DNA from: a virus
Lineage: Duplodnaviria; Caudoviricetes
DNA length: 40,439 nt
IMG/VR virus record: IMGVR_UViG_3300032155_000017
Span: 1-40,439 of that record
Reading direction: 5' to 3' (one strand)
The notes below the pieces were generated by a model that was not told where the DNA came from, did not search any database, and saw only the letters and a program-made list of their open reading frames with translations. The translations under genes were made by a program, and so were the position numbers. Each line of letters begins with the position of its first letter. Within the stretch, counting starts at the first letter, position 1. Shown in pieces: positions 4,491 through 40,439 of the stretch.

Positions 4491-5360
4491 CTAGACGTAG
4501 ATAATGAACATGACAGCCGTGTTCTTCATGCGGGTTTCCGTGTCCCCACGGTAGCCGGTGGAGTTGGCCGTGGCCGAGGAAAAGCCGTTGTTGTTCGAGT
4601 CGGTGCCCTGGCAGCCGTTGGAGCCGAGGGAACCCGAGGCGCTGTTGCGGCTCTGCGGGTGGTTGTGCGAGGCGAAGGCGTCGGCCTGATAGCTCAAGAG
4701 CACACGCGCGGCGTCCAGTCCCCGGCCGTTGTCCCATCCGCGCGGCGCGACGCCGCGCATGTCCAGCAGGCGGATGTGGGTTCCCGCCGCATCGCGCACT
4801 CCGGCATCCGTGCAGCGGTAGAACGCCTCGGCCGTGGCGTTGTCCGTCTCGCCAACCCACGCGCGCAGCAGGCGGGGGAAGGTTGCCAGCGACACCACGC
4901 TGCCGTTCAACTCCAGCCCTGCGGGCAAGCCGTCGGAAAGCGTTGGGATGGTCGCCTTGCCCCACATCACGATCTCGCCCGCCCGCATGTCCCGCACGGC
5001 GGCGGTCACGTTGGCCCGCCCCAGCAGTTCCGCCAGTTGTGGCGGCGAGATGTAGCCGTTCCCCACCCCGGCTTCGGCGTCCTCGTCGGTGGCCCGGCGC
5101 ACCAGTCCCGGTGTTTCCGTGGTGGCGTAACCGGGCATCGCGGGCGCGGCGTTGGCGATCAGCGCGGTGATGGCCTCCAGCAACTGGCCGTTGTCGTCCT
5201 TGTCCAGGGCGATGCCCGCCCCGGCGATGACGGCGGCCACCTCTTCCTGCACGGCGTTCAGCCATTCGGCGCTGACTTCCGTGGCGGCGGTGGGGATGGT
5301 GGGGTCGCCTTCGGTAAAGCGGTTGTCCGGCGTGGCGCCGGGGGTGTCTATGCGGTGCAT
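4491..5360 (-). CDS. tail fibre protein (Mu gpS-like N-terminus, collar domain)
   Basis: MHRIDTPGAT...FTEGDP...SAEWLNAVQEE; DMRGVAPRGWDNGRGLD...SYQADAFASHNH...ETRMKN collar motif. Confidence 0.88.
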   Translation of the reverse strand: MHRIDTPGATPDNRFTEGDPTIPTAATEVSAEWLNAVQEEVAAVIAGAGIALDKDDNGQLLEAITALIANAAPAMPGYATTETPGLVRRATDEDAEAGVGNGYISPPQLAELLGRANVTAAVRDMRAGEIVMWGKATIPTLSDGLPAGLELNGSVVSLATFPRLLRAWVGETDNATAEAFYRCTDAGVRDAAGTHIRLLDMRGVAPRGWDNGRGLDAARVLLSYQADAFASHNHPQSRNSASGSLGSNGCQGTDSNNNGFSSATANSTGYRGDTETRMKNTAVMFIIYV

Positions 5361-29776: not shown

Positions 29777-29836
29777 GACGGCCTCCCTTGCAAAACAGGT
29801 GCAACAACGTTTCGCCAGGGCAGCCGCCACAATGCA

Positions 29837-29899
29837 GCCGCCCCCGGTGCTGCCATATTGGCAGCAACCGGGGGCGGCGACAGAAGGAAGGGGTTCAGT
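29837..29899 (-). promoter_or_regulatory. late-promoter-like element (copy 3, Plys-equivalent)
   Basis: ACTGAACCCCTTCCTTCTGTC, 18 nt, CAATAT at the apex of the long hairpin GCCGCCCCCGGT-TGCTGCCA/TGGCAGCA-CCGGGGGCGGC. Confidence 0.65.
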
Positions 29900-29907
29900 G
29901 GGGCGTG

Positions 29908-30231
29908 CTAGATCAGGTGCTGGACAAGACGGAAAGAACCTATGACGCCCAACATGAAAAGGCCCGCAATGAAGCCCCACGCGGCAGTAAAGGAGACAGG
30001 CAATTCTTTTCTCGTTTCCTTCGCGGCATAGATGCCGACCAGCATGAGCATGGGACCGCCAAGCAAGTATACCTTTACCGGCGGGAAACGAGCAGCAAGC
30101 TCCGCAAGTATCCCGGCACCCAGCATCACCATCAGAACGAACACCACCGCAAACCGATAGCGAGGCATGTACTTCAGCATTGCAACGACAATGCCGATGA
30201 ACGCACCAACGAGAATCGCATACATCAACAT
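29908..30231 (-). CDS. small multi-TM membrane protein (accessory)
   Basis: 107 aa, ~4 hydrophobic segments, GGAGG RBS, lower GC. Confidence 0.7.
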   Translation of the reverse strand: MLMYAILVGAFIGIVVAMLKYMPRYRFAVVFVLMVMLGAGILAELAARFPPVKVYLLGGPMLMLVGIYAAKETRKELPVSFTAAWGFIAGLFMLGVIGSFRLVQHLI

Positions 30232-30239
30232 GGAACCTC

Positions 30240-30701
30240 CTACACCAGACGCCCCTGTGCCGGGGCAGATTGACGGGGGGGCACGGCATCTGGCCCTTTC
30301 AGGATCAGCCAGACTCGTCTGTCGGAAAGCCTATAGCGCAGGGCAAGTTCCGCGACAACATCCGTTCCGGTGCGCCCGGTCCGTATCTCAGCGTCGAAAT
30401 GTCGAACTATCTCCGTATCCCGCGCCCTGCGCAACGCATCGGCACAGCGGGGAATGTACAGGTTGGTTCCGCCGTACTGCTTGCACAGGATGTCGGCGGC
30501 CTTCACCCCCACGGCCTGCTCCAGCAGGTTGAAACGCAGTTCGCCCATCCGGTTCTCGCGCTTGGGAACCGGGAACGTCGTGCCGCCCAGCGCCTCCACC
30601 AGCCGCAGGGTGTCGGGCATGCCGATAAGCCCGGCAATCTCGCGGGCCATGGCGGGCATGCTGTCTTCGTGCTGCATGATCTGCAAGACATCGCGCGTCA
30701 T
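30240..30701 (-). CDS. mor: Mor/C-family transcription activator
   Basis: LVEALGGTTFPVP, YGGTNLYIPRC, RDTEI, ELALRYRLSDRRVWLILK. Confidence 0.88.
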   Translation of the reverse strand: MTRDVLQIMQHEDSMPAMAREIAGLIGMPDTLRLVEALGGTTFPVPKRENRMGELRFNLLEQAVGVKAADILCKQYGGTNLYIPRCADALRRARDTEIVRHFDAEIRTGRTGTDVVAELALRYRLSDRRVWLILKGPDAVPPRQSAPAQGRLV

Positions 30702-31138
30702 GCATCTTCCTCCTTGCCCGAGCGGCGGCGCGCATCCTTCACCAGAGCCACCATGACGGCCTTTAGCTGGTCCGCGTCGCACCATTCCAGCTTCTCCACC
30801 CCGAACATGCGCCGGGCAATGGCTTCCGCGTAGCTCCACGGCCTGCCGTTGTCGGCAAGCAGCGCCTCCACCTTGGCCAGCAGGGCGGAACCTCCGGCCT
30901 TCACGCGCGGCTTGCGGCCCTTGCGCGTTGCCGCCTTGGGCTGCCAGCCCTTGGCCCGTAGTTCGGCCACCACGGCCACCAGTTGCCTGTCCGTCAGGCC
31001 GGACGCGGAGCGTTGCCCGGTCACCCGTTCCAGCAGGTCGCGGTACACGCTTTCGCCCAGGGCCAGGTCCTTCCGGGCGATGTGAATCTTGGCCAGCAGT
31101 GAATTGCGGCCTTCGGACCGGGCGTCAGAAGTCGCCAT
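30698..31138 (-). CDS. gemA: GemA / gp16 family protein (DUF1018)
   Basis: LAKIHIARKDLAL...YRDLL..VTGQRSA, KVEALL, WSYAEAIARRMFGVEKLEW. Confidence 0.88.
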   Translation of the reverse strand: MATSDARSEGRNSLLAKIHIARKDLALGESVYRDLLERVTGQRSASGLTDRQLVAVVAELRAKGWQPKAATRKGRKPRVKAGGSALLAKVEALLADNGRPWSYAEAIARRMFGVEKLEWCDADQLKAVMVALVKDARRRSGKEEDA

Positions 31139-31340
31139 GTGCCACCTCCAGCAGGCTGCGCTGGCCCGGTCGTTGCCGTTCCGCGCGGGTGTTCAGGGCA
31201 TGGACGCAGGCTGCGGCGTTCACCGTGGCGGCGTCGGGGTCGTTGGGGTCCACGAAGAACAGCGCCACGATGCGGTTGCGCTCGGTGTCGCGGATGCACG
31301 GCATGTCCGTATTGGTGCGGGAACGCTGGTACCGCTGCAT
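31125..31340 (-). CDS. hypothetical early protein
   Basis: GGAGG RBS plus ATG; tightly packed in the operon. Confidence 0.6.
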   Translation of the reverse strand: MQRYQRSRTNTDMPCIRDTERNRIVALFFVDPNDPDAATVNAAACVHALNTRAERQRPGQRSLLEVAHGDF

Positions 31341-31342
31341 GG

Positions 31343-31795
31343 CTACCTCCGGCATTCGGATACGGGCACCTGAACCAGCCCACGCCCGAACAGCAGGACG
31401 TGGACGTACCAGCGGGCATCAGCCCCCTGATGCGGTTGCGTCGCGGTGCGGGTGCGGTCGTACAGGGGCGTTCCGTCCGGGGCGCGCCCACCGTTGGCAA
31501 CGCGGACGGGGGTGCCCACGGGCAATTCCGGTCGCGGCTCTTCGGCGGGCGCGGCATCGCCCGACAGCGGCCCCAGCAGCCGGGCCACCAGCCCGCCCAC
31601 CGCCGCAGGGGGAAGAAAACTGTACTTCTCGCCGCCCACGCGCACCCATCGCCCGCCCTGGCGCACCCGGAACACCCCGGCGACCGCGCCGGGCTGGCCG
31701 GGCCACAGTTCCGCCGGGAACAGTTCAAGGCTCACTGGCGTTTTGCCGGGCAGGGTAAGCAGAATATGGGCTGTTTTCTTGCGCGGTTCTGCCAT
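31343..31795 (-). CDS. hypothetical early protein
   Basis: GGAG RBS, 150 aa, phage-like codon usage; first gene after hammerhead 1. Confidence 0.65.
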   Translation of the reverse strand: MAEPRKKTAHILLTLPGKTPVSLELFPAELWPGQPGAVAGVFRVRQGGRWVRVGGEKYSFLPPAAVGGLVARLLGPLSGDAAPAEEPRPELPVGTPVRVANGGRAPDGTPLYDRTRTATQPHQGADARWYVHVLLFGRGLVQVPVSECRR

Positions 31796-31814
31796 GTGGA
31801 CTCCGCATTTCTCG

Positions 31815-31884
31815 TTGGCTGCTCGTCAGGCCGGGGCCGCCACGCCCCGACGACCGCCCCCCATCACAGGCGGGGCGGTTTCGC
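31815..31884 (-). ncRNA. type II hammerhead ribozyme (copy 1)
   Basis: GC-GAAAC-CGCCCC-loop-GGGGCG-GTC^-GTCGGGGC-GTGGCG-GCCCCGGC-CTGACGA-GC-AGCCA; intact CUGANGA/GAAA/GUC core. Confidence 0.85.
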
Positions 31885-32151
31885 TCAACTGTGTGCAGGT
31901 TGCGGGACTTTCACTTCTACCTTCGTCAACGGGTACTTGATTCGCAGTTCGCCGATGCCCTCCATAGGGGGGATAATCCGTACCTTGTGGCCGACTTTCA
32001 GGGCATCCATGGGTTCCAGCAGACGGCTCCCAACCCACAGGGAAGCCTGAAACGGTCGGCAGTCTATGACCTCCCTGTCGCAGATGTCCCACTCCAAAAA
32101 ATCCTGCATGTGATCTTCAAAGGTCACGGTGATGATGGTGACCGCTTCCAT
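31885..32151 (-). CDS. hypothetical protein bracketed by two hammerhead ribozymes
   Basis: 88 aa, AAGGA RBS, lower GC; TFEDHMQDFLEWDI...DCRPFQASLWVG. Confidence 0.7.
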   Translation of the reverse strand: MEAVTIITVTFEDHMQDFLEWDICDREVIDCRPFQASLWVGSRLLEPMDALKVGHKVRIIPPMEGIGELRIKYPLTKVEVKVPQPAHS

Positions 32152-32161
32152 AAGTGTTCCT

Positions 32162-32223
32162 TTGGCTGCTCGTCAGGCCGGGGCCGCCACGCCCCAGCGA
32201 CCGCCCCGAAGGGCGGTTTCGCA
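32162..32223 (-). ncRNA. type II hammerhead ribozyme (copy 2)
   Basis: TGC-GAAAC-CGCCC-TTCG-GGGCG-GTC^-GCTGGGGC-GTGGCG-GCCCCGGC-CTGACGA-GCA-GCCA. Confidence 0.87.
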
Positions 32224-32460
32224 TCACTTGCACAAGATGCGTTTTGCTGTCGCCGCATCATATCCCGCCTCTATCAGACGGGATGCGGCATCGTTCCTGA
32301 TGCCTCGCACTATTGCGGAACGGTCATCTTCCTTGCGTTTGCGAAATGCCGGGTTGTCGGAAAGTTCCGGCATCTGCTCCGGTGACAAGTTGGGGTGTCG
32401 CAACACTCGCTCCGCAAACAACCTGACCATGTAGTTGAGCCGCAGCTTGTCCCGCGCCAT
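32224..32460 (-). CDS. hypothetical early protein
   Basis: 78-aa ORF filling the gap; stop codon abuts hammerhead 2. Confidence 0.6.
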   Translation of the reverse strand: MARDKLRLNYMVRLFAERVLRHPNLSPEQMPELSDNPAFRKRKEDDRSAIVRGIRNDAASRLIEAGYDAATAKRILCK

Positions 32461-32467
32461 GACTCAC

Positions 32468-32962
32468 CTACGCGGCCTTGTAGCTCAGGGTGGCCTTGGC
32501 TTCCTGAATCCGCAGGCAACCCGCCACGTCGCGGGCCAGCGGGTTGTCGCCATCGGTGGCAAGGCTCACCAACTTGGGTTCGGGCGAATAGGTGGCCTTT
32601 TCCTTCACGAGGTCGGGGAAGCGGTCGCCCAGCAGTTCACGCAGGGCGCCCACGTCGGCAATGGCCACGGAATCCCGCAGGGACACGGTGCAGTCCACGC
32701 CCGCGATGACGATGTGCAGGGTGCCGTTGCCGTCCATCCAGCGCGGCACCTCGGCAAGAATCTTCGCGTTCACTTCCTCCAGCTTGTCCTTCAGCCCGTC
32801 GATCTCGTTCTTCAGGGCCGCACCGTGCAGCACCAGTTCGCCCAGCGAGGCCGGGGCGGTGAAGGTCTGCTTGCCCAGCTTGACCGTTGCCACGGGCGGC
32901 GTGGGCAGGTGGGACACGTTGGATTCCTGCACCTTCTTCAGTTTCTTTGCGGCGGTCGCCAT
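32468..32962 (-). CDS. hypothetical early protein (coiled coil; lies in the Gam/DUF3164-like position)
   Basis: GGAGG RBS; LKNEIDGLKDKLEEVN coiled coil; LLGDRFPDLV. Confidence 0.65.
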   Translation of the reverse strand: MATAAKKLKKVQESNVSHLPTPPVATVKLGKQTFTAPASLGELVLHGAALKNEIDGLKDKLEEVNAKILAEVPRWMDGNGTLHIVIAGVDCTVSLRDSVAIADVGALRELLGDRFPDLVKEKATYSPEPKLVSLATDGDNPLARDVAGCLRIQEAKATLSYKAA

Positions 32963-32963
32963 G

Positions 32964-33293
32964 TCAGTTTCCTCCATTCTGTTGGTCGGGTTGGGGTCTG
33001 TGGGGGCAAGCCTGGCAGGCGCGCCAGTGGCGCAAGGCTGCCGGGCTGGATGTCGGCAAGGGGCCGTTGTGGCGGGCGCATTCCAGCGCGGTCAGTTCAC
33101 GCCCCAGAAAGGGGCACGCCACCCGCCCGTAGGTTTCGAGGATGCGTTGCGCCATGCGGTCGGTGCGGCCAGGGTAGCGCCCGGCCAGCAGCAGGCTGAC
33201 CGATGGCCGGGACACGCCCAGTTCGCGCGCCACCGCCGCCTTGGTGCGGTCTGCGGCGGCGTGGCGCAGCAGTTCCAGCCAGTCATGCGTCAT
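32964..33293 (-). CDS. HTH protein with Cys-rich C-terminus
   Basis: KAAVARELGVSRPSVSLLLAGRY; CPFLG...C...WRACQACP. Confidence 0.75.
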   Translation of the reverse strand: MTHDWLELLRHAAADRTKAAVARELGVSRPSVSLLLAGRYPGRTDRMAQRILETYGRVACPFLGRELTALECARHNGPLPTSSPAALRHWRACQACPHRPQPDQQNGGN

Positions 33294-33876
33294 GAGCGGC
33301 CCCCTGTTGCGCCAGTTCGGCCAGTGTCGGAACGCGCAGGACTTCGCCGGTGTTCGGGTCCGTCAGGGTGCGTGTGGCCTTGTTGAAGGCCGGGGCTTCC
33401 GGCCCGGTGTTGCGGTCGCGCCGCAGGCGGTAGCGTTGGGGGTGCGGGCCATTGCCCCGGCGGGGCAGCGCCAGCAGGTAGCCCGTGGAGGCCAGCGCCC
33501 GGATGTAGGCGCCAAGGTTCCTTTCCGCATCGACCTCGCTGCCGTCGCACAGCATGGTCAGCAAATCGTCCAGGCTGAAGCCGTCGCGCATGCGCATGGC
33601 CCGCCACGCCTTGGCGCGCAGGGTGTTGCCCCGCCTGCTGGCAGCCGTAGCAGTGCTGGGGCCGCCCTTGGGCTCATAGCCGGTGGCCAGCACGGCGCGC
33701 CCCGCTTCCGTGATTTCGTGGACGCCAGCGTGCGAGACGATGAACCCTTTCCCCCTCAAGTTCTTGCAGGCATTGCGGGCGGACTCCGTACTCACGCCGA
33801 GCACGGACGCAATGCTGCGCGTCAGCTTGGGGCCTGCCGCAAGTTGCGTCAGGATGTCGCGTCCGTACCACGCCAT
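33283..33876 (-). CDS. winged-HTH DNA-binding protein
   Basis: N-terminal wHTH; LRAKAWRAMR, YIRALASTGYL, YRLRRDRNTGPEAP, DPNTGE, common after B in Mu-like phages. Confidence 0.72.
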   Translation of the reverse strand: MAWYGRDILTQLAAGPKLTRSIASVLGVSTESARNACKNLRGKGFIVSHAGVHEITEAGRAVLATGYEPKGGPSTATAASRRGNTLRAKAWRAMRMRDGFSLDDLLTMLCDGSEVDAERNLGAYIRALASTGYLLALPRRGNGPHPQRYRLRRDRNTGPEAPAFNKATRTLTDPNTGEVLRVPTLAELAQQGAAHDA

Positions 33877-34659
33877 CTAACGGCCCCCCGCCGCCTGTGC
33901 CCCCGTGCGGGGTGCGCGGCCCTGCCGGGCGGTATTGGCCATGCGCGGGGTGCGGGCCTGCCAGTCGTAGGACAGGGGCACCCCGGCCACGTCGGCCATG
34001 GTCACCGTGGCCAGTTCGTTCACCTTGGCGATGCGTTCGATGGTGGCCACGATGTTCAGCACCTCGCGCATGCGCCCGCCGGACAGGCGATGCACCTCGG
34101 CCACCAGTTCATCGGTCAGGGGCACTTCCGAAAGCTGCCCGCAGGCGTGGGCCACATCGGCCAGCGAGGCGGGGCGGAATTCCACCACCTGCGCAATGCG
34201 GCTGTTGATCTGCTTGTGCCGGGCGATGTTCTGCTGGATGCGCTCCATGCCGATCAGCACCACGGTCACCTCGGCCCGGTCGGACAGGTCGCGTACCTTT
34301 TCCAGCACGGCGGCGGCTGACGACAGGGTGAATTCCGCCTCGTCGATGACCAGCGGGGCCTGCGTTTCCACCACGTGTTCCAGCAGCCGCCCGAACAGTT
34401 GCTGCGCCGTGCCGCGCGGGTCCACCCGCAGTTCCTTGGCCAGTTCGGTCAGGAAGTATTTCGGGGTCCAGTCCACGTTGGCCCGCAGGAACACGGCCCC
34501 GGTTTCGGCGGCCCAATGCCCCACCGTGTGGCTTTTGCCGAAGCCCGGCGCGCCGTGAACCAGCATCATCCCGGCTTCCGCCGCGCCGCGCTGTTCCACC
34601 GCCTGAATGCCTGCGGTGAACCGGGTGTAGTTTTCCGTCCTGACGAATTGCTTGCGCAT
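33877..34659 (-). CDS. MuB: MuB-like AAA ATPase (transposition protein B)
   Basis: Walker A GAPGFGKS, Walker B LVIDEAE, VRDLSD, VVLIGM. Confidence 0.9.
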   Translation of the reverse strand: MRKQFVRTENYTRFTAGIQAVEQRGAAEAGMMLVHGAPGFGKSHTVGHWAAETGAVFLRANVDWTPKYFLTELAKELRVDPRGTAQQLFGRLLEHVVETQAPLVIDEAEFTLSSAAAVLEKVRDLSDRAEVTVVLIGMERIQQNIARHKQINSRIAQVVEFRPASLADVAHACGQLSEVPLTDELVAEVHRLSGGRMREVLNIVATIERIAKVNELATVTMADVAGVPLSYDWQARTPRMANTARQGRAPRTGAQAAGGR

Positions 34660-34667
34660 GGTGTCTC

Positions 34668-36842
34668 CTAGTTCTCGGTATGGGCGAGGGCCTTCCAGCC
34701 CGGCCACGCGATGCCTTCGTGCACGTAGCGGTCGTGACTGTCGGCGTACTCGAAGGTTTCGACGTACCGGCACAGCCACGGTTCATCCTTGTCCAGCCAG
34801 CGGTCCTTGTGGCGCATCAGCCATTCGTACCGCTCGTGCCCATGCGCGAAGCACGGGCGGGGTTGTTGTTCGGGGGCGGGGGTGCGCAAGGGCGCAACGT
34901 CCAGCGTGACGGAGGGGGCGTCGGGCGCGTCTGCCCGTGCGGGCAGCGGTTCACGCGGGGCAAGGCTGTCGGCCACCAGAGTGATGACGTGGGGCCGCTC
35001 GGCCTCGGGCAGCACAAGGGTTGCGCCGGGAGCGATGCGGTTGGCCTTGGCCTCCAGCCGCTTGAGTTGCGCGGCCTCCCGCTGGGCGCGGGCGGCTTCG
35101 ATGCGGGTCTGCTGGAAGTAGGGAATGCTGTTGCCGTCCAGCACGGCGTCGCAAATCTTGTGGCCGTCCATGGTCCAGACGTAGACCCGGCTGGCATCCC
35201 ACACGTCGTAGCGCACCATGACCGCGTCGCCGTGGTACGGGGCAAGGTCGTCGGCGTAGTAGATGCCGCCGCCGAAGCGCACCTCGCCGTTGCGCACGAT
35301 GCGGCGCTCTGCGGGCATGAAGAAATCGTTGGAGCAGGCGGCGGGAACGCGCACCGGCTCCCACCCCGTGGAAAGGAAGTGCTGCCATGCCTCGTCGGGC
35401 GACATGTGGCGGCGCGTGCCGCTGGCGTCGGTGGTCATGGGCAGCGCGCGGTGGGGCGTGGCGTTGTATTCGGCAACGCGCTCCAGCATGGCCGTCTTGA
35501 ATTCGTCCCACGTGGGCATCAGGGCCGTGCGCGCGCCGCGCTTCAGGGCGTCGCGGGTGATCTTGTAGACCTTCTTGGCCGCGTCCGCGTCCATGTCGCG
35601 GTGCGTGCAGGTGGCGAACCGCTTGGCCACCGGGTCGCAGAAGGTGGGCACGGCGCGCTCCATCAGGCCCTTGCCCTGCGGGCGACCAGGAATGGATGCG
35701 GCGCGTTCGATGCCGAGGCGGGCCAGCATCCCCGTTCCGGGGGCGGTCAGCAGCAGGTTGTCGTAGCCGGGGCCGTTGTCCGAGTAGAACATGGCCGGAA
35801 TGCCGCCGAACAGGCAGGCCATGCGCAGCGCATCCAGCACGCCCTGGGCGTTTTCCGCGTAGTTCAGCGAAATGCCCACGCAGCGCCGGGTGGCCACGTC
35901 CAGTACTATGGTGACTTCCGGCTTGAACGGCTGGCCGTTGTGCGGGTTGCGGATTTCGGCGTCGAAAGTGGTGCCGTCTGCCGTGTAGCAATCGCCGGGC
36001 AGCATGTCCTTTGTGGAGCGGCGCTTGTGCGGTTGCAGTTTCAGCAGGGCGTTGCCCGTCCTGCGGCCCCGCTCCAGTTCCGGCAGCGCCACCTTGGCCG
36101 CCCAGCGTTTTACCGCGTGGATGGACGGCGGCGTGCCCGTCAGCGTGCCGTCCGCGTAGGCGCGGCACAGGTCGCGGTGGGCCTGCGTCAGGGACGGCTT
36201 TTGCGGCAGACGGAAGAACGCGAGGAATGCGTCCGCCCACGGCGGCACCGTCATGTCCTTGGCCTTGTGCTTGGGCACCAGGGCGTCTTCGCCGCCCTTG
36301 ATGTACAGGGTGCGCCATGCGTACAGCCTGCGCCGCGAAAGGCCGCGCTTGTCGCCGCTGCCGAAGCGGTCGTTGGCGTCGCGCACCGCGCGCATCAGGT
36401 GCGCGGGCAGCGTGCCGTCCGCCGCGTCCTGCACCAGCTTCATGATGGCCGAGTCCACGCCCGTCAGCACGGCAAGGCGTTCCACCTCACGAATGAGGGC
36501 AAGGCGCGCCATGGCGATTTCGCGCTGGCGGTTGGAGCAGTGCTTCAGCGGGGACATGCGGGCGGCGATGGCCCGGCGCGGGTCGGCGGCATCAAGCGGC
36601 GGCAGCGCGGGCAGGTTCTTTTCCGCCTCCTGCGCCGCCGTGCGCAGCATCCCGTCCAGCAGGGCCTTGCGCGTGGTCTTGGGCATGGAGGCAAGCAGCC
36701 ACTCGTTGCCGCCGCCGCGCCCCTTGCGGGGGCGGGAAGTCCAGCCTTCACGGCTTGCGCGCCGTATCACCGTGGACTCGGAACTGATTCCGAGCAGGGG
36801 CAGCAGGTCGCGCGTCGTGTATGCTTCTTTCGGGGATGCCAT
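34668..36842 (-). CDS. MuA: MuA-like DDE transposase
   Basis: N-terminal Mu HTH (RASREGW...GRGGG.EW); ADGTTFD, YSDNGPG, PQGKGLMER; YNATPH; Mu transposase C-terminal region. Confidence 0.93.
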   Translation of the reverse strand: MASPKEAYTTRDLLPLLGISSESTVIRRASREGWTSRPRKGRGGGNEWLLASMPKTTRKALLDGMLRTAAQEAEKNLPALPPLDAADPRRAIAARMSPLKHCSNRQREIAMARLALIREVERLAVLTGVDSAIMKLVQDAADGTLPAHLMRAVRDANDRFGSGDKRGLSRRRLYAWRTLYIKGGEDALVPKHKAKDMTVPPWADAFLAFFRLPQKPSLTQAHRDLCRAYADGTLTGTPPSIHAVKRWAAKVALPELERGRRTGNALLKLQPHKRRSTKDMLPGDCYTADGTTFDAEIRNPHNGQPFKPEVTIVLDVATRRCVGISLNYAENAQGVLDALRMACLFGGIPAMFYSDNGPGYDNLLLTAPGTGMLARLGIERAASIPGRPQGKGLMERAVPTFCDPVAKRFATCTHRDMDADAAKKVYKITRDALKRGARTALMPTWDEFKTAMLERVAEYNATPHRALPMTTDASGTRRHMSPDEAWQHFLSTGWEPVRVPAACSNDFFMPAERRIVRNGEVRFGGGIYYADDLAPYHGDAVMVRYDVWDASRVYVWTMDGHKICDAVLDGNSIPYFQQTRIEAARAQREAAQLKRLEAKANRIAPGATLVLPEAERPHVITLVADSLAPREPLPARADAPDAPSVTLDVAPLRTPAPEQQPRPCFAHGHERYEWLMRHKDRWLDKDEPWLCRYVETFEYADSHDRYVHEGIAWPGWKALAHTEN

Positions 36843-36850
36843 GGCAGTCT

Positions 36851-37093
36851 CTAAGCGGCAGCGCGCGAATCAATATCGTGGGGCAGGCTCAACCAGCGTT
36901 CGGGGCAGCCGAGGTCCAGCAGCTTGCGCAGCACCCGCCGGTTGTTCCTCCGGCCCCATATGGTGCTGGACACCAGCGAGTTGTGGACGCCCAACTCTTC
37001 CGCGATGGCCACTTGGCTGATGCGCTTGCTGCGCAGCCATCCGAGAATGCGGTAGGTCTGACGCTGCCTACCGGTTCCGATTCGCCATTCCAT
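36851..37093 (-). CDS. Ner/Cro-like small HTH protein
   Basis: ISQVAIAEELGVHNSLVSSTIWGRRNNRRVL. Confidence 0.72.
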   Translation of the reverse strand: MEWRIGTGRQRQTYRILGWLRSKRISQVAIAEELGVHNSLVSSTIWGRRNNRRVLRKLLDLGCPERWLSLPHDIDSRAAA

Positions 37094-37532
37094 CCTCAAG
37101 CTCCATTTCGAGTTGCCGTACCGTCTTGCGGCGGCGTTTGGTTTCCCAGCACACGTGCCCGTAATCGCGAAGGCGCTTGTCCTCGGCGGTCATGACGCCG
37201 CAGCCGAGCAGCCCCAGCAGTTGCGACAGGGGTTGCACGCTGCCTATGGCAAGGCAGAAGACCTCCAGGGCCAGCACGGAAGGAAGGTGTTCGCGGTCAG
37301 CGGGATTGAGCCACTTGTCGAGCGTGGCAGAGGACAATTGACGGGCGTTGCCGGTGGTCAGCCTGACACCCGCTTCCGACGCCATGGCGTTCATGCGGTC
37401 CACAACCTGCGCGCGGGAAAGCCCGCACGAGGCAAGGGCGCGCTGCATGGACGCCTTCAGCGTGGCATTCAGCCCGGCAAGGCGGGCCGCCTTGTCGTCG
37501 AAAAGCGAGCACTGGATCGCAGTCACCGGCAA
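37068..37532 (-). CDS. CII-like phage regulatory protein
   Basis: LSRAQVVDRMN...LSSATLDKWLNPADREHLP...FCLA; start uncertain (TTG). Confidence 0.65.
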   Translation of the reverse strand: MPVTAIQCSLFDDKAARLAGLNATLKASMQRALASCGLSRAQVVDRMNAMASEAGVRLTTGNARQLSSATLDKWLNPADREHLPSVLALEVFCLAIGSVQPLSQLLGLLGCGVMTAEDKRLRDYGHVCWETKRRRKTVRQLEMELEDGMANRNR

Positions 37533-37658
37533 CCGTCCGTCTGTTTCTGGGTTTACCGTCCGGAATCTCTAACGCTCCGGACGTTGACCCGTGCAGGCCG
37601 GGCGGATAAGGTCAACTTGCTACGGTGAAACCTTTACCGCCCCGCAGCTCCGTTTTTA

Positions 37659-37965
37659 TCCAAACGGTATAGAAAGTCAACGCCGAATGGCGCAAAACTT
37701 TCCCGTTCGGGCTTTGCGAAGCTTCGGGAAAACATTCCAAACGGTTAAGTCTGGCCGCGCGCAAAAGTCGGCGCGGTCAAGCCTTGCAAAAGTTTGGGAC
37801 TGGAAGTTTTGCGTATGATTGGCAAGCGAATCGAAGAATTGCGGGGCAAGATTTCGCGTGAAGCCTTTGCCGCCGAACTTGGCGTGCATGCCCAGACCTT
37901 GGCGCGCTATGAGAAGGGCGAACGCCTTCCCGACAGCACATTTCTGGAAAATATATCCAAACGGT
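37659..37965. promoter_or_regulatory. candidate operators TCCAAACGGT (3 copies)
   Basis: exact copies at 37659-37668 and 37736-37745 (divergent intergenic region) and 37956-37965 (inside the repressor gene). Confidence 0.45.
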
Positions 37966-38531
37966 TCAGTGTGGCCCCGGCATGGCTGCTCCTGGGCGAA
38001 GGGCCGATGCACGGTGCCGAGCGGGCCGCTGGCTTGAGTACGGGCACGCCCCCTCCGCCTCCAGTGCTGACGCCCGTCACGAGTGAGAGTCACGTAATAG
38101 AATGCGCGGACTGCCAGATCATGCTGGTGCCCATGGTGGAGGCGAGGTTAAGCGCGGGCACCGGCAGCTTCGAGACTGGCGACGATGTGGAACGGCGCTA
38201 CGCCTTTCGCACGGACTTCCTCATGCGCAAGGGGCAGCCGTCAGCCATGGTGCTGATGCGGGTGACCGGCGACAGCATGGAGCCGGACATCAAGCACAAT
38301 GACGCGGTGCTTATCGACCAGAGCCAGCGTGTTCCGCGCCCTGGCCTGCTGTACGCCGTCGGCGTTGAAGATCTGGTCTACCTCAAGTCTGTGAACGCCG
38401 AGCCGGGCAAGCTGGTCCTTTCCAGCTACAACCCCGACTATCCGCCGATTGAAGTGGACGCGCGAGGCGACTTGTCCAACGGAATCCGTATAATTGGTCG
38501 TGCTGTATGGGTAGGTCGTGAATTGAACTAA
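37815..38531 (+). CDS. CI-like repressor: XRE HTH plus S24 peptidase
   Basis: SREAFAAELGVHAQTLARYEKGERLP; LSAGTG cleavage site; VTGDSMEP (Ser); YLK (Lys); IIGRAVW. Confidence 0.92.
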   Translation: MIGKRIEELRGKISREAFAAELGVHAQTLARYEKGERLPDSTFLENISKRFSVAPAWLLLGEGPMHGAERAAGLSTGTPPPPPVLTPVTSESHVIECADCQIMLVPMVEARLSAGTGSFETGDDVERRYAFRTDFLMRKGQPSAMVLMRVTGDSMEPDIKHNDAVLIDQSQRVPRPGLLYAVGVEDLVYLKSVNAEPGKLVLSSYNPDYPPIEVDARGDLSNGIRIIGRAVWVGRELN

Positions 38532-38558: not shown

Positions 38559-39011
38559 ATGTCAGAATACAAACTCGCCGAAGAAATTGTGGCATTAAGC
38601 GAATCGGACAACTGGCAAGATGCAAAGCATGAGTGGAAACTTATTCACATATGCTATGAAGATGAGCCAGACACATGCCTATGCGGTCATTTTCCAATAA
38701 AAGAACTATGCTTTCTTAAAAACAAAAAAAATGGCAGGGAGACTTTTGTTGGAAATTGTTGTGTTAAAAAATTTCTTGGAATATCAACAGGAACACTATT
38801 TACGTCACTTAGAAAAATTAAAAACGATCAAGACAAATCACCATCAAAAGATCTGATACGCCACGCTCACGTTAATAGATGGATAAACGACTGGGAAAGA
38901 AATTTTGCCATTGATAATCTTAGAAAAAGAAATTTGACAGGATTTCAAATTGCAAAGCGCAGAGAGATAAATCGAATCATAATTCGAAGAGCCATTAAAT
39001 CATCCAGTTGA
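38559..39011 (+). CDS. AT-rich hypothetical Cys/His-rich protein downstream of the repressor
   Basis: GGGAG RBS; AKHEW, TCLCGHFPI, FVGNCCVKKF; low GC. Confidence 0.75.
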   Translation: MSEYKLAEEIVALSESDNWQDAKHEWKLIHICYEDEPDTCLCGHFPIKELCFLKNKKNGRETFVGNCCVKKFLGISTGTLFTSLRKIKNDQDKSPSKDLIRHAHVNRWINDWERNFAIDNLRKRNLTGFQIAKRREINRIIIRRAIKSSS

Positions 39012-39296: not shown

Positions 39297-39413
39297 GAAA
39301 AGGTGCGAACAAAGGGAGCGTGATTTCAAGGGATAATGCGGATTGGCATTTCCCCTTTAATTCAGCTATGGTAGCAAGGTATTGGCACGCCAGACATGCC
39401 GAAGGGGCACTTC

Positions 39414-40439
39414 ATGAGCCAGCAGTACCAGCCGCCTTTCTCCATCACCCCAGCCATCGTCACTCTTGTCGGCCGGATCAGCGAAGCCGTGGGGCGGTTG
39501 ACCATTCTCCGCGAACAGGCGGCGTCACTCCGGTTGCGGCGTATCAACCGTATCCGCACCATACGCGGGTCGCTCGCCATAGAAGGCAACCAACTCAGCG
39601 AAGCGCAGATCACCGCCATTCTCGATGGGAAACGGGTCATCGCGCCTCCCCGTGAAGTTCAGGAGGTGCGTAATGCCCTTGCCGCGTATGAGCGTTTCGA
39701 TGACTGGAACCCTGTCGTCGAAAAGGATCTGCTGGAAGCGCACGGAATCCTGATGTCCGGCCTGATCGACGAGGCAGGCAGCTACCGCCGGGGTGGCGTC
39801 GGCGTGTTGGAAGGTTCCCACGTTATCCACCTGGCTCCCCCGGCCGACCGGTTGCCTGCGCTTATGGGCGATCTGTTTCACTGGTTGGCGACCAGCGATG
39901 CCCACCCGTTGGTTGCAAGTTCCGTGTTCCACTACGAATTCGAATTCATCCATCCCTTCGCCGACGGGAATGGCCGCATGGGGCGGTTGTGGCAGAGCCT
40001 CATTCTGGCCCGTTGGAACGGGTTGTTCGCCGATCTCCCGGTGGAGAACCTGATCTTCGCGCATCAGGCCGAGTACTATGAGGCGTTGCAGGAAAGTACG
40101 CGACAGACGGACAGTGCCCCCTTTATCGAGTTCATGCTCACGATGATTTTCGATGCCGTGATCGCGTCCGTTGCTCCAGATGCCCCCCAAGTCGCCCCTC
40201 AAGTCACCCCCCAAGTCGGGCAGCTATTGCAGGCCATACATGGCGAAATGTCCCGTGAGGAGTTGCAGGATGCACTTGGTCTGCAAGACCGCAAGTCTTT
40301 CCGGGAGCGCTATCTCAAGCCGGCCCTGGCGGACGGGTTCATCGAGATGACCGTTCCCGAAAAGCCCAATAGCCGCTTGCAGCGGTATCGACTGACGGAC
40401 AAGGGGCACCAGTGGCTGCAACTCCGTCGTGAAGGGTAG
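39414..40439 (+). CDS. fic: Fic-domain protein with C-terminal wHTH
   Basis: HYEFEFIHPFADGNGRMGR Fic motif, GSLAIEGN, xPQV linker repeats, PEKPNSRLQRYRLT C-terminus. Confidence 0.92.
   Translation: MSQQYQPPFSITPAIVTLVGRISEAVGRLTILREQAASLRLRRINRIRTIRGSLAIEGNQLSEAQITAILDGKRVIAPPREVQEVRNALAAYERFDDWNPVVEKDLLEAHGILMSGLIDEAGSYRRGGVGVLEGSHVIHLAPPADRLPALMGDLFHWLATSDAHPLVASSVFHYEFEFIHPFADGNGRMGRLWQSLILARWNGLFADLPVENLIFAHQAEYYEALQESTRQTDSAPFIEFMLTMIFDAVIASVAPDAPQVAPQVTPQVGQLLQAIHGEMSREELQDALGLQDRKSFRERYLKPALADGFIEMTVPEKPNSRLQRYRLTDKGHQWLQLRREG

Follow-up and report, generated by a model that had tools for sequence, protein, structure and literature searches.

Twin type II hammerhead ribozymes on either side of a small accessory gene of a Mu-like prophage probably cut the early transcript into linear pieces

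Introduction

Among the closest described systems are the hammerhead clusters of Perreault et al. 2011 (PMC3088659), in which, according to the part of that paper available to us, the ribozymes flank single prophage genes of inconstant identity. Three of these clusters cleave in vitro and one in E. coli, the available text reports that no spliced or circular products were detected, and processing into single-gene mRNAs is proposed there. Olzog et al. 2021 (PMC8782182, likewise available in part) demonstrated cellular as well as in vitro cleavage for three type II hammerheads of Desulfovibrio vulgaris; the one termed loc 2 gave the fewest reads, too few for a conclusive analysis of read ends, and at loc 3 a portion of the reads was uncleaved. 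Among the gene associations of bacterial hammerheads, that with Mu-like phages is the strongest, for a reason given as unknown (PMC10085705), and why phages carry self-cleaving ribozymes is still presented as an open question in the accessible portions of two papers (PMC6765202, PMC10085705). In the accessible literature on these hammerheads we found no measurement of the effect of cleavage on expression.

Here we analyse a twin hammerhead locus in a viral DNA sequence of 40,439 nucleotides, referred to throughout as the window, which is one complete provirus record of the Mu type. A sequence-only reading of this DNA had proposed that two ribozymes excise a single-gene RNA from the early operon, that this RNA is a stabilised or circular message, and that the ribozyme repeats may also serve as recombination points for cassette gain and loss.

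Results

The genes for the transposase, the transposition ATPase, GemA and the Mor-like activator all lie on the minus strand around the ribozyme pair, and the features of the region are as follows.

33877..36842, minus strand: Mu-like transposase and transposition ATPase genes (phrog_310, phrog_296), upstream part of the early operon
32468..32977, minus strand: 169-aa gene (phrog_27552), whose stop codon is the left break of a 584-nt indel
32224..32460, minus strand: 78-aa upstream gene (phrog_23109), low GC; the closest relative lacks both this gene and the 88-aa gene
32160..32224, minus strand: upstream type II hammerhead ribozyme (Rfam RF02276, 75.7 bits, E 3e-14)
31852..32198, minus strand: 347-nt RNA predicted from the positions of the two cuts
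32158..32162, minus strand: AAGGA, the ribosome-binding site for the 88-aa gene, immediately behind the tail of the candidate pseudoknot, from the sequence
31885..32151, minus strand: enclosed 88-aa gene (phrog_27241), mostly-beta predicted fold, conserved QDFLEWD and CRPFQ motifs
31813..31886, minus strand: downstream type II hammerhead ribozyme (Rfam RF02276, 68.3 bits, E 3e-12)
31343..31795, minus strand: 150-aa downstream gene (phrog_18900), from its PHROG match
30240..31138, minus strand: Mu GemA gene and Mor-like late activator (PF06252; phrog_836), downstream end of the early region

The order in the window is 169-aa gene, 78-aa gene, ribozyme, 88-aa gene, ribozyme, 150-aa gene. A scan of positions 29800-38000 returned no promoters, and terminators at chance level. 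In the annotated phage collection the ribozyme region was unmatched, and five records matched GemA only. Elsewhere in the window, a Fic/DOC family gene occupies the prophage end (39396-40439, plus strand), an AT-rich ORF with no PHROG or Pfam match lies behind the repressor (38559-39011, plus strand), and a hydrophobic ORF of 53% GC, also with no match in either collection, lies behind the late activator (29908-30231, minus strand).

The claim of two full-core hammerheads on the minus strand, for which a comparison with Rfam covariance models had been suggested, was borne out: both copies score far above the RF02276 gathering cut-off of 37 bits, match the model (clan CL00010) over its full length (positions 1-66) with no broken pairs, and are the only Rfam matches at gathering score in the whole 40.4-kb window. 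In the sequence itself each copy shows GAAAC, stem III and GUC, then stem I (8 bp, with the loop GUGGCG), CUGACGA and stem II, which has 3 bp in the upstream copy and 2 bp in the downstream one. Stem II is open, and loops close stems I and III, as in members of RF02276. Both match the hammerhead core C3 U4 G5 A6 N7 G8 A9, G12 A13 A14 A15, U16 H17, for which we used the list in the available part of PMC3088659; they differ from RF02276 in that N7 is C and in that the downstream copy has 8 extra nucleotides in the stem III loop. In the upstream copy, stem I pairs 32198-32191 with 32184-32177, CUGACGA occupies 32176-32170, and a candidate pseudoknot joins 32189-32186 to 32166-32163. The UGGC/GCCA complementarity behind this loop-to-tail pseudoknot is present in both copies, the tail being fixed by our search pattern and two-sided covariation therefore uncountable. 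The differences between the copies preserve pairing, as the sequence-only reading had noticed, in that the single G-U pair of stem I is pair 3 in one copy and pair 2 in the other, and the stem III loops differ. Minimum-energy folds recovered stems I and III, and not the whole junction.

Each ribozyme begins within the predicted 0-1 nt of a stop codon: in the upstream copy the stop codon ends at 32224 and GCGAAAC runs from 32222 (1 nt), and in the downstream copy the stop codon ends at 31885 and GCGAAAC runs from 31884 (0 nt). At 32222-32226 and 31884-31887 the stop codons abut the GAAA core strand, and in 94 of 169 family members the gap between stop codon and GAAA strand is likewise at most 2 nt. 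Because of this abutment a terminating ribosome would cover the GAAA strand, and upstream translation might gate cleavage. With C17 at 32199 and 31852, the predicted cuts fall at 32199/32198 and 31852/31851 and the piece between them, 32198-31852, is 347 nt long, in agreement with the cut sites and length first proposed. This piece contains the AAGGA ribosome-binding site and the whole 88-codon ORF; it would begin with a 5'-OH and a hairpin from its first base and end with the stem III hairpin and a 2',3'-cyclic phosphate.

A pattern built on the window motif located 118 viral and 57 genome loci of this ribozyme family; because the core, the tail and stems II and III were all set by this pattern, only stem I and the flanks are informative. 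Seven of these 175 loci failed the stem rules and were dropped, and a structure matcher returned 209 matches in 180 distinct contexts. Because most of the genome loci are in Desulfovibrionaceae, the host of the window phage probably belongs to this group. Stem I occurs as 79 distinct 22-nt variants in which each of the eight pairs is kept in 76-79 of the 79, with exchanges among C-G, G-C and A-U, and because its sequence varies while the pairs stay, selection on RNA structure is indicated. Loop I carries GG(C/U), which can pair with the pattern-fixed GCC tail, in 180 of 180 contexts. A same-strand ORF stop lies at most 12 nt before the ribozyme in 169 of 179 members (6.8% at random positions; 15/179 on the opposite strand), and an ATG with a ribosome-binding site comes next in 129 of 179 (12.8% at random; 6/179 on the opposite strand). 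The ribozyme anatomy is plain from the sequence, and across the family the element sits behind one gene's stop codon and ahead of the ribosome-binding site that follows. Homologues of MuA, MuB or GemA were near in 132 of the 152 contexts with long flanks. The flanking proteins form 112 families, and among the 59 representatives scanned, of 111 listed, the commonest upstream gene encodes an HU-type protein (36/172) and the commonest downstream gene is GemA (18/170). At five loci (L035, L067, L075, L097 and L156) hammerheads sit directly before the MuA transposase gene, a position that is itself a second site, about 4-6 kb away from the accessory region. Near pairs, less than 2.5 kb apart, number 22 among the 180 contexts, and 10 of the 22 enclose one called ORF, drawn from 9 families.

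The enclosed 88-aa protein matched no Pfam family. Its predicted structure is confident (pLDDT 86); searched with this model, the PDB gave no match at E 0.001 or better and BFVD gave one, to an uncharacterised phage protein. The family had 13 matches in one search and 36 viral loci, and a ribozyme lies within 1.2 kb at 2 of these 36 and directly in front at 1; single-sequence searches of viral contigs with the 88-aa and 78-aa proteins added no new loci. We considered whether the gene and a ribozyme travel as a fixed unit and rejected this: of 116 homologue loci the structure matcher placed a ribozyme near 2, and Rfam did so for 3 of 40, one of the latter three being a near-identical strain (L218). 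The 88-aa protein belongs to a genuine family that mostly occurs without ribozymes, so its gene was probably captured into the slot. In the near-identical strain (L218:928-992) U16 of the upstream ribozyme is changed to G. This is probably a sequencing error, since coverage of the contig is 2.6-fold and another T-to-G change lies close by. In a lower-GC phage (L208:629-1524) an HU gene and a hammerhead are followed by a 182-aa protein with a domain related to the 88-aa protein. The enclosed ORF had been described as lower in GC, and at 54.7% against 65.2% for the window it is; the ribozymes do not bound the low-GC stretch, which must be wider than the ribozyme-bounded piece because the 78-aa ORF outside the pair is also low (56.5%).

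The same junction is recognisable in relatives, and the content of the slot varies among them. In L006 (about 72% DNA identity) the gene order is the same and both ribozymes are intact, with an unrelated 79-aa gene (phrog_21034) in the slot; over 35 positions of the 3' part, the window copies differ from the upstream copy of L006 at 4 and 2 positions. The two L006 ribozymes correspond letter for letter, and in length and 313-nt spacing, to loc 2 and loc 3 of D. vulgaris as printed in the available part of PMC8782182, and the loc 2 3' fragment is the start of the enclosed RNA in this layout. The two closest relatives of the window have one ribozyme each. In L004 (87-93% identity) the 169-aa gene, a ribozyme and the 150-aa gene follow one another and 584 nt of the window are absent, one end of this indel lying at the 169-aa stop codon and not at a ribozyme. 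The same join appears in sequencing runs X3 and X18, and run X4 shares the join of 169-aa gene to ribozyme. In L005 the 169-aa gene and ribozyme precede an antisense lipoprotein-like ORF (4625-5050, minus strand). Directly downstream of the ribozyme this ORF takes the place of the 150-aa and 71-aa genes, a GC hairpin lying in between, and it is possibly an exclusion moron. An empty form, 78-aa gene, ribozyme, 150-aa gene, occurs in distant phages only (L007, L011, L015 and L120; 34-38% protein identity). Contig depth of the enclosed unit was tried as a sign of mixed forms and set aside as unreliable: X2 gave a lower value (66 against 112 and 154) but X5 was flat (34 against 30 and 31). Among the RNA-run contigs examined, none spans the 88-aa gene or the two ribozymes of the window, and two of the RNA runs are probably DNA; one contig from an RNA library (X18), possibly also DNA, is uncut across the single ribozyme of a relative, which counts against the cleavage reading.

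Gene order was compared using gene-end flanks only, which avoids the bias of alignments entering the conserved ribozyme. In a sample whose loci all bear ribozymes by choice, are related and not independent, and carry our own gene calls, 34 of 47 ribozyme junctions were broken at 85% identity, compared with 157 of 429 among the other small-gene junctions nearby; the excess persisted when locus pairs were matched (38 observed, 17.2 expected). It is modest when the comparison is made with junctions that have a gap of at least 40 nt, 20 of 41 of which were broken (p 0.0008, 0.03 and 0.06 at 80, 85 and 90% identity). These breaks are no more than suggestive of ribozyme junctions being preferred sites of gene gain and loss. 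Two loci that are 98-99% identical (L160:3036-4130 and L014:3024) differ by a 1,094-bp segment lying exactly between identical 59-nt hammerheads and comprising one ribozyme and two genes (a 77-aa ORF and an HNH endonuclease) at 42% GC, where assembly collapse is possible. An empty-site form exists elsewhere for 5 of 19 testable pairs, and similarity is slightly higher within near pairs (0.873) than within random pairs (0.844; p 0.04). The proposal that the repeats are points of cassette gain and loss is thus upheld in part: breaks are enriched, and exact repeat-to-repeat gain or loss is seen between L160 and L014, but not between the window and its nearest relative.

Discussion

Our findings are best accounted for, and in our judgement likely so, by two hammerheads that flank an 88-codon accessory gene and cut the early transcript into linear pieces, among them the 347-nt single-gene RNA, uncoupling the accessory gene from its neighbours, while their DNA at times provides a crossover point. 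The ribozymes probably punctuate the early mRNA. Cleavage by the window copies is likely by analogy, the orthologous pair being active in cells (PMC8782182, from the accessible part), and the original proposal of single-gene RNA excision by type II hammerheads is in this sense likely. The two copies would cut during transcription, the double cut would free the linear RNA with its terminal hairpins, and decay and translation of the accessory gene would be uncoupled from those of the adjacent genes. At the DNA level, the conserved 60-nt junction sequence would at times serve as a crossover point for genes entering or leaving the slot.

The fate of the excised RNA is where the initial proposal fared worst. 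The ends left by hammerhead cleavage, 5'-OH and 2',3'-cyclic phosphate, are those joined by RtcB-type ligases. Ligation into a circular mRNA could draw on RtcB in three of five host genomes that carry the ribozyme family, the other two yielding none in assemblies that are possibly incomplete. We nevertheless regard such circles as highly improbable, because the folded circle rebuilds the ribozyme and gains no structure: stems I and III re-form across the circle junction with pair probabilities of 0.79-1.0, restoring a cleavable ribozyme, and the fold z-score is -0.28, against -0.47 for the linear RNA, neither of them unusual. The available text of PMC3088659, with no spliced or circular products for such clusters, also argues against the circular mRNA first suggested. 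Rolling-circle translation was considered and dropped, as 347 is not divisible by three, a stop codon ends the ORF and pair lengths show no frame preference. The excised product is thus modelled as probably linear. A 5'-OH end confers resistance to RNase E-type decay, yet in the glmS case it is a substrate of RNase J, and an RNase J-family gene (TIGR00649) is present in all five host genomes checked. A stabilised mRNA, also suggested initially, is not favoured by the D. vulgaris data, where the upstream ribozyme of the pair, loc 2, is the one with the fewest reads (PMC8782182, available part).

Two further readings concern what the ribozyme is kept for. The ribozyme may matter singly, as a processing mark before the next gene, the twin layout being a by-product of acquiring a gene together with a ribozyme that it carried in or duplicated; the 347-nt piece would then have no special role. 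Most family members are indeed single, the two closest relatives have one ribozyme, and the 88-aa family rarely has one nearby; L006, however, keeps the twin layout with both ribozymes intact around a different gene, and we consider this reading unlikely, noting that it is largely compatible with the linear-processing explanation, the one point of difference being selection on the pair. That the ribozyme is retained chiefly because it marks a boundary for DNA recombination, as a gene-cassette site with RNA cleavage secondary, would fit the enriched gene-order breaks, the exact segment separating L160 from L014, the empty-site forms and the slight likeness of near pairs. It appears improbable to us, as stem I varies with its pairs kept, which speaks for selection on RNA structure and lowers DNA identity, and the closest indel of the window has one end at a stop codon; the exact 347-nt deletion was also not seen in eight sequencing runs, a weak argument given that contigs break at repeats. 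In addition to processing RNA, the ribozymes may double as gene-swap boundaries, and this role, for which the evidence is moderate, is the only part of our account that goes beyond published work; our literature search, with most subscription papers outside reach, found no paper testing ribozymes as recombination boundaries.

More generally, we tentatively suggest that the hammerhead of Mu-like phages infecting sulfate-reducing bacteria may be a junction with two uses, its RNA freeing the message of each accessory gene from the adjacent ones and its DNA offering the crossover point for swapping such genes, and that it forms a plug-in slot in which a captured gene would gain a processed 5' end. 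The window locus does not settle why phages carry self-cleaving ribozymes. It does place one junction in a natural allelic series, twin with one gene, twin with another, single, and single followed by an antisense gene, among the relatives of a model bacterium that can be cultured and whose ribozymes are validated, which makes the questions of processing and gene swapping directly testable.

In comparison with known systems, the window pair is a further and largely ordinary case of a published arrangement, and not a new layout. As in clustered prophage hammerheads, at least two same-strand ribozymes surround one gene of variable identity; with the clusters of PMC3088659, as far as its available text goes, the locus shares several hammerheads around single genes or short blocks and a pseudoknot between loop I and the 3' tail (in the window, complementarity), and it differs in hosts and genes, gene turnover at ribozyme sites being no part of that account. 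The boundary sequences of phage mosaicism (PMC3029335, available in part) resemble the locus in being short conserved junction sequences where homologous recombination can swap modules, whereas the window boundary is a catalytic RNA gene at which recombination is deduced solely from comparing genomes. Retrozymes and viroid-like RNA circles (PMC6155905, available in part) also have tandem hammerheads a few hundred nucleotides apart; the window copies instead flank a protein gene of an operon, outside long repeats, and the enclosed RNA is not the highly structured monomer that would hold a ribozyme inactive, its z-scores being unexceptional and its stems re-forming. The D. vulgaris loc 2/loc 3 pair shares the ribozyme sub-family, the twin layout and the junction itself, 169-aa gene, 78-aa gene, ribozyme, small gene, ribozyme, 150-aa gene, GemA. 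It differs in the enclosed gene (79 aa, phrog_21034, in L006 against 88 aa, phrog_27241, in the window), in the distance from cut to cut (315 nt against 347 nt in the window) and in that the window copies are known from sequence alone.
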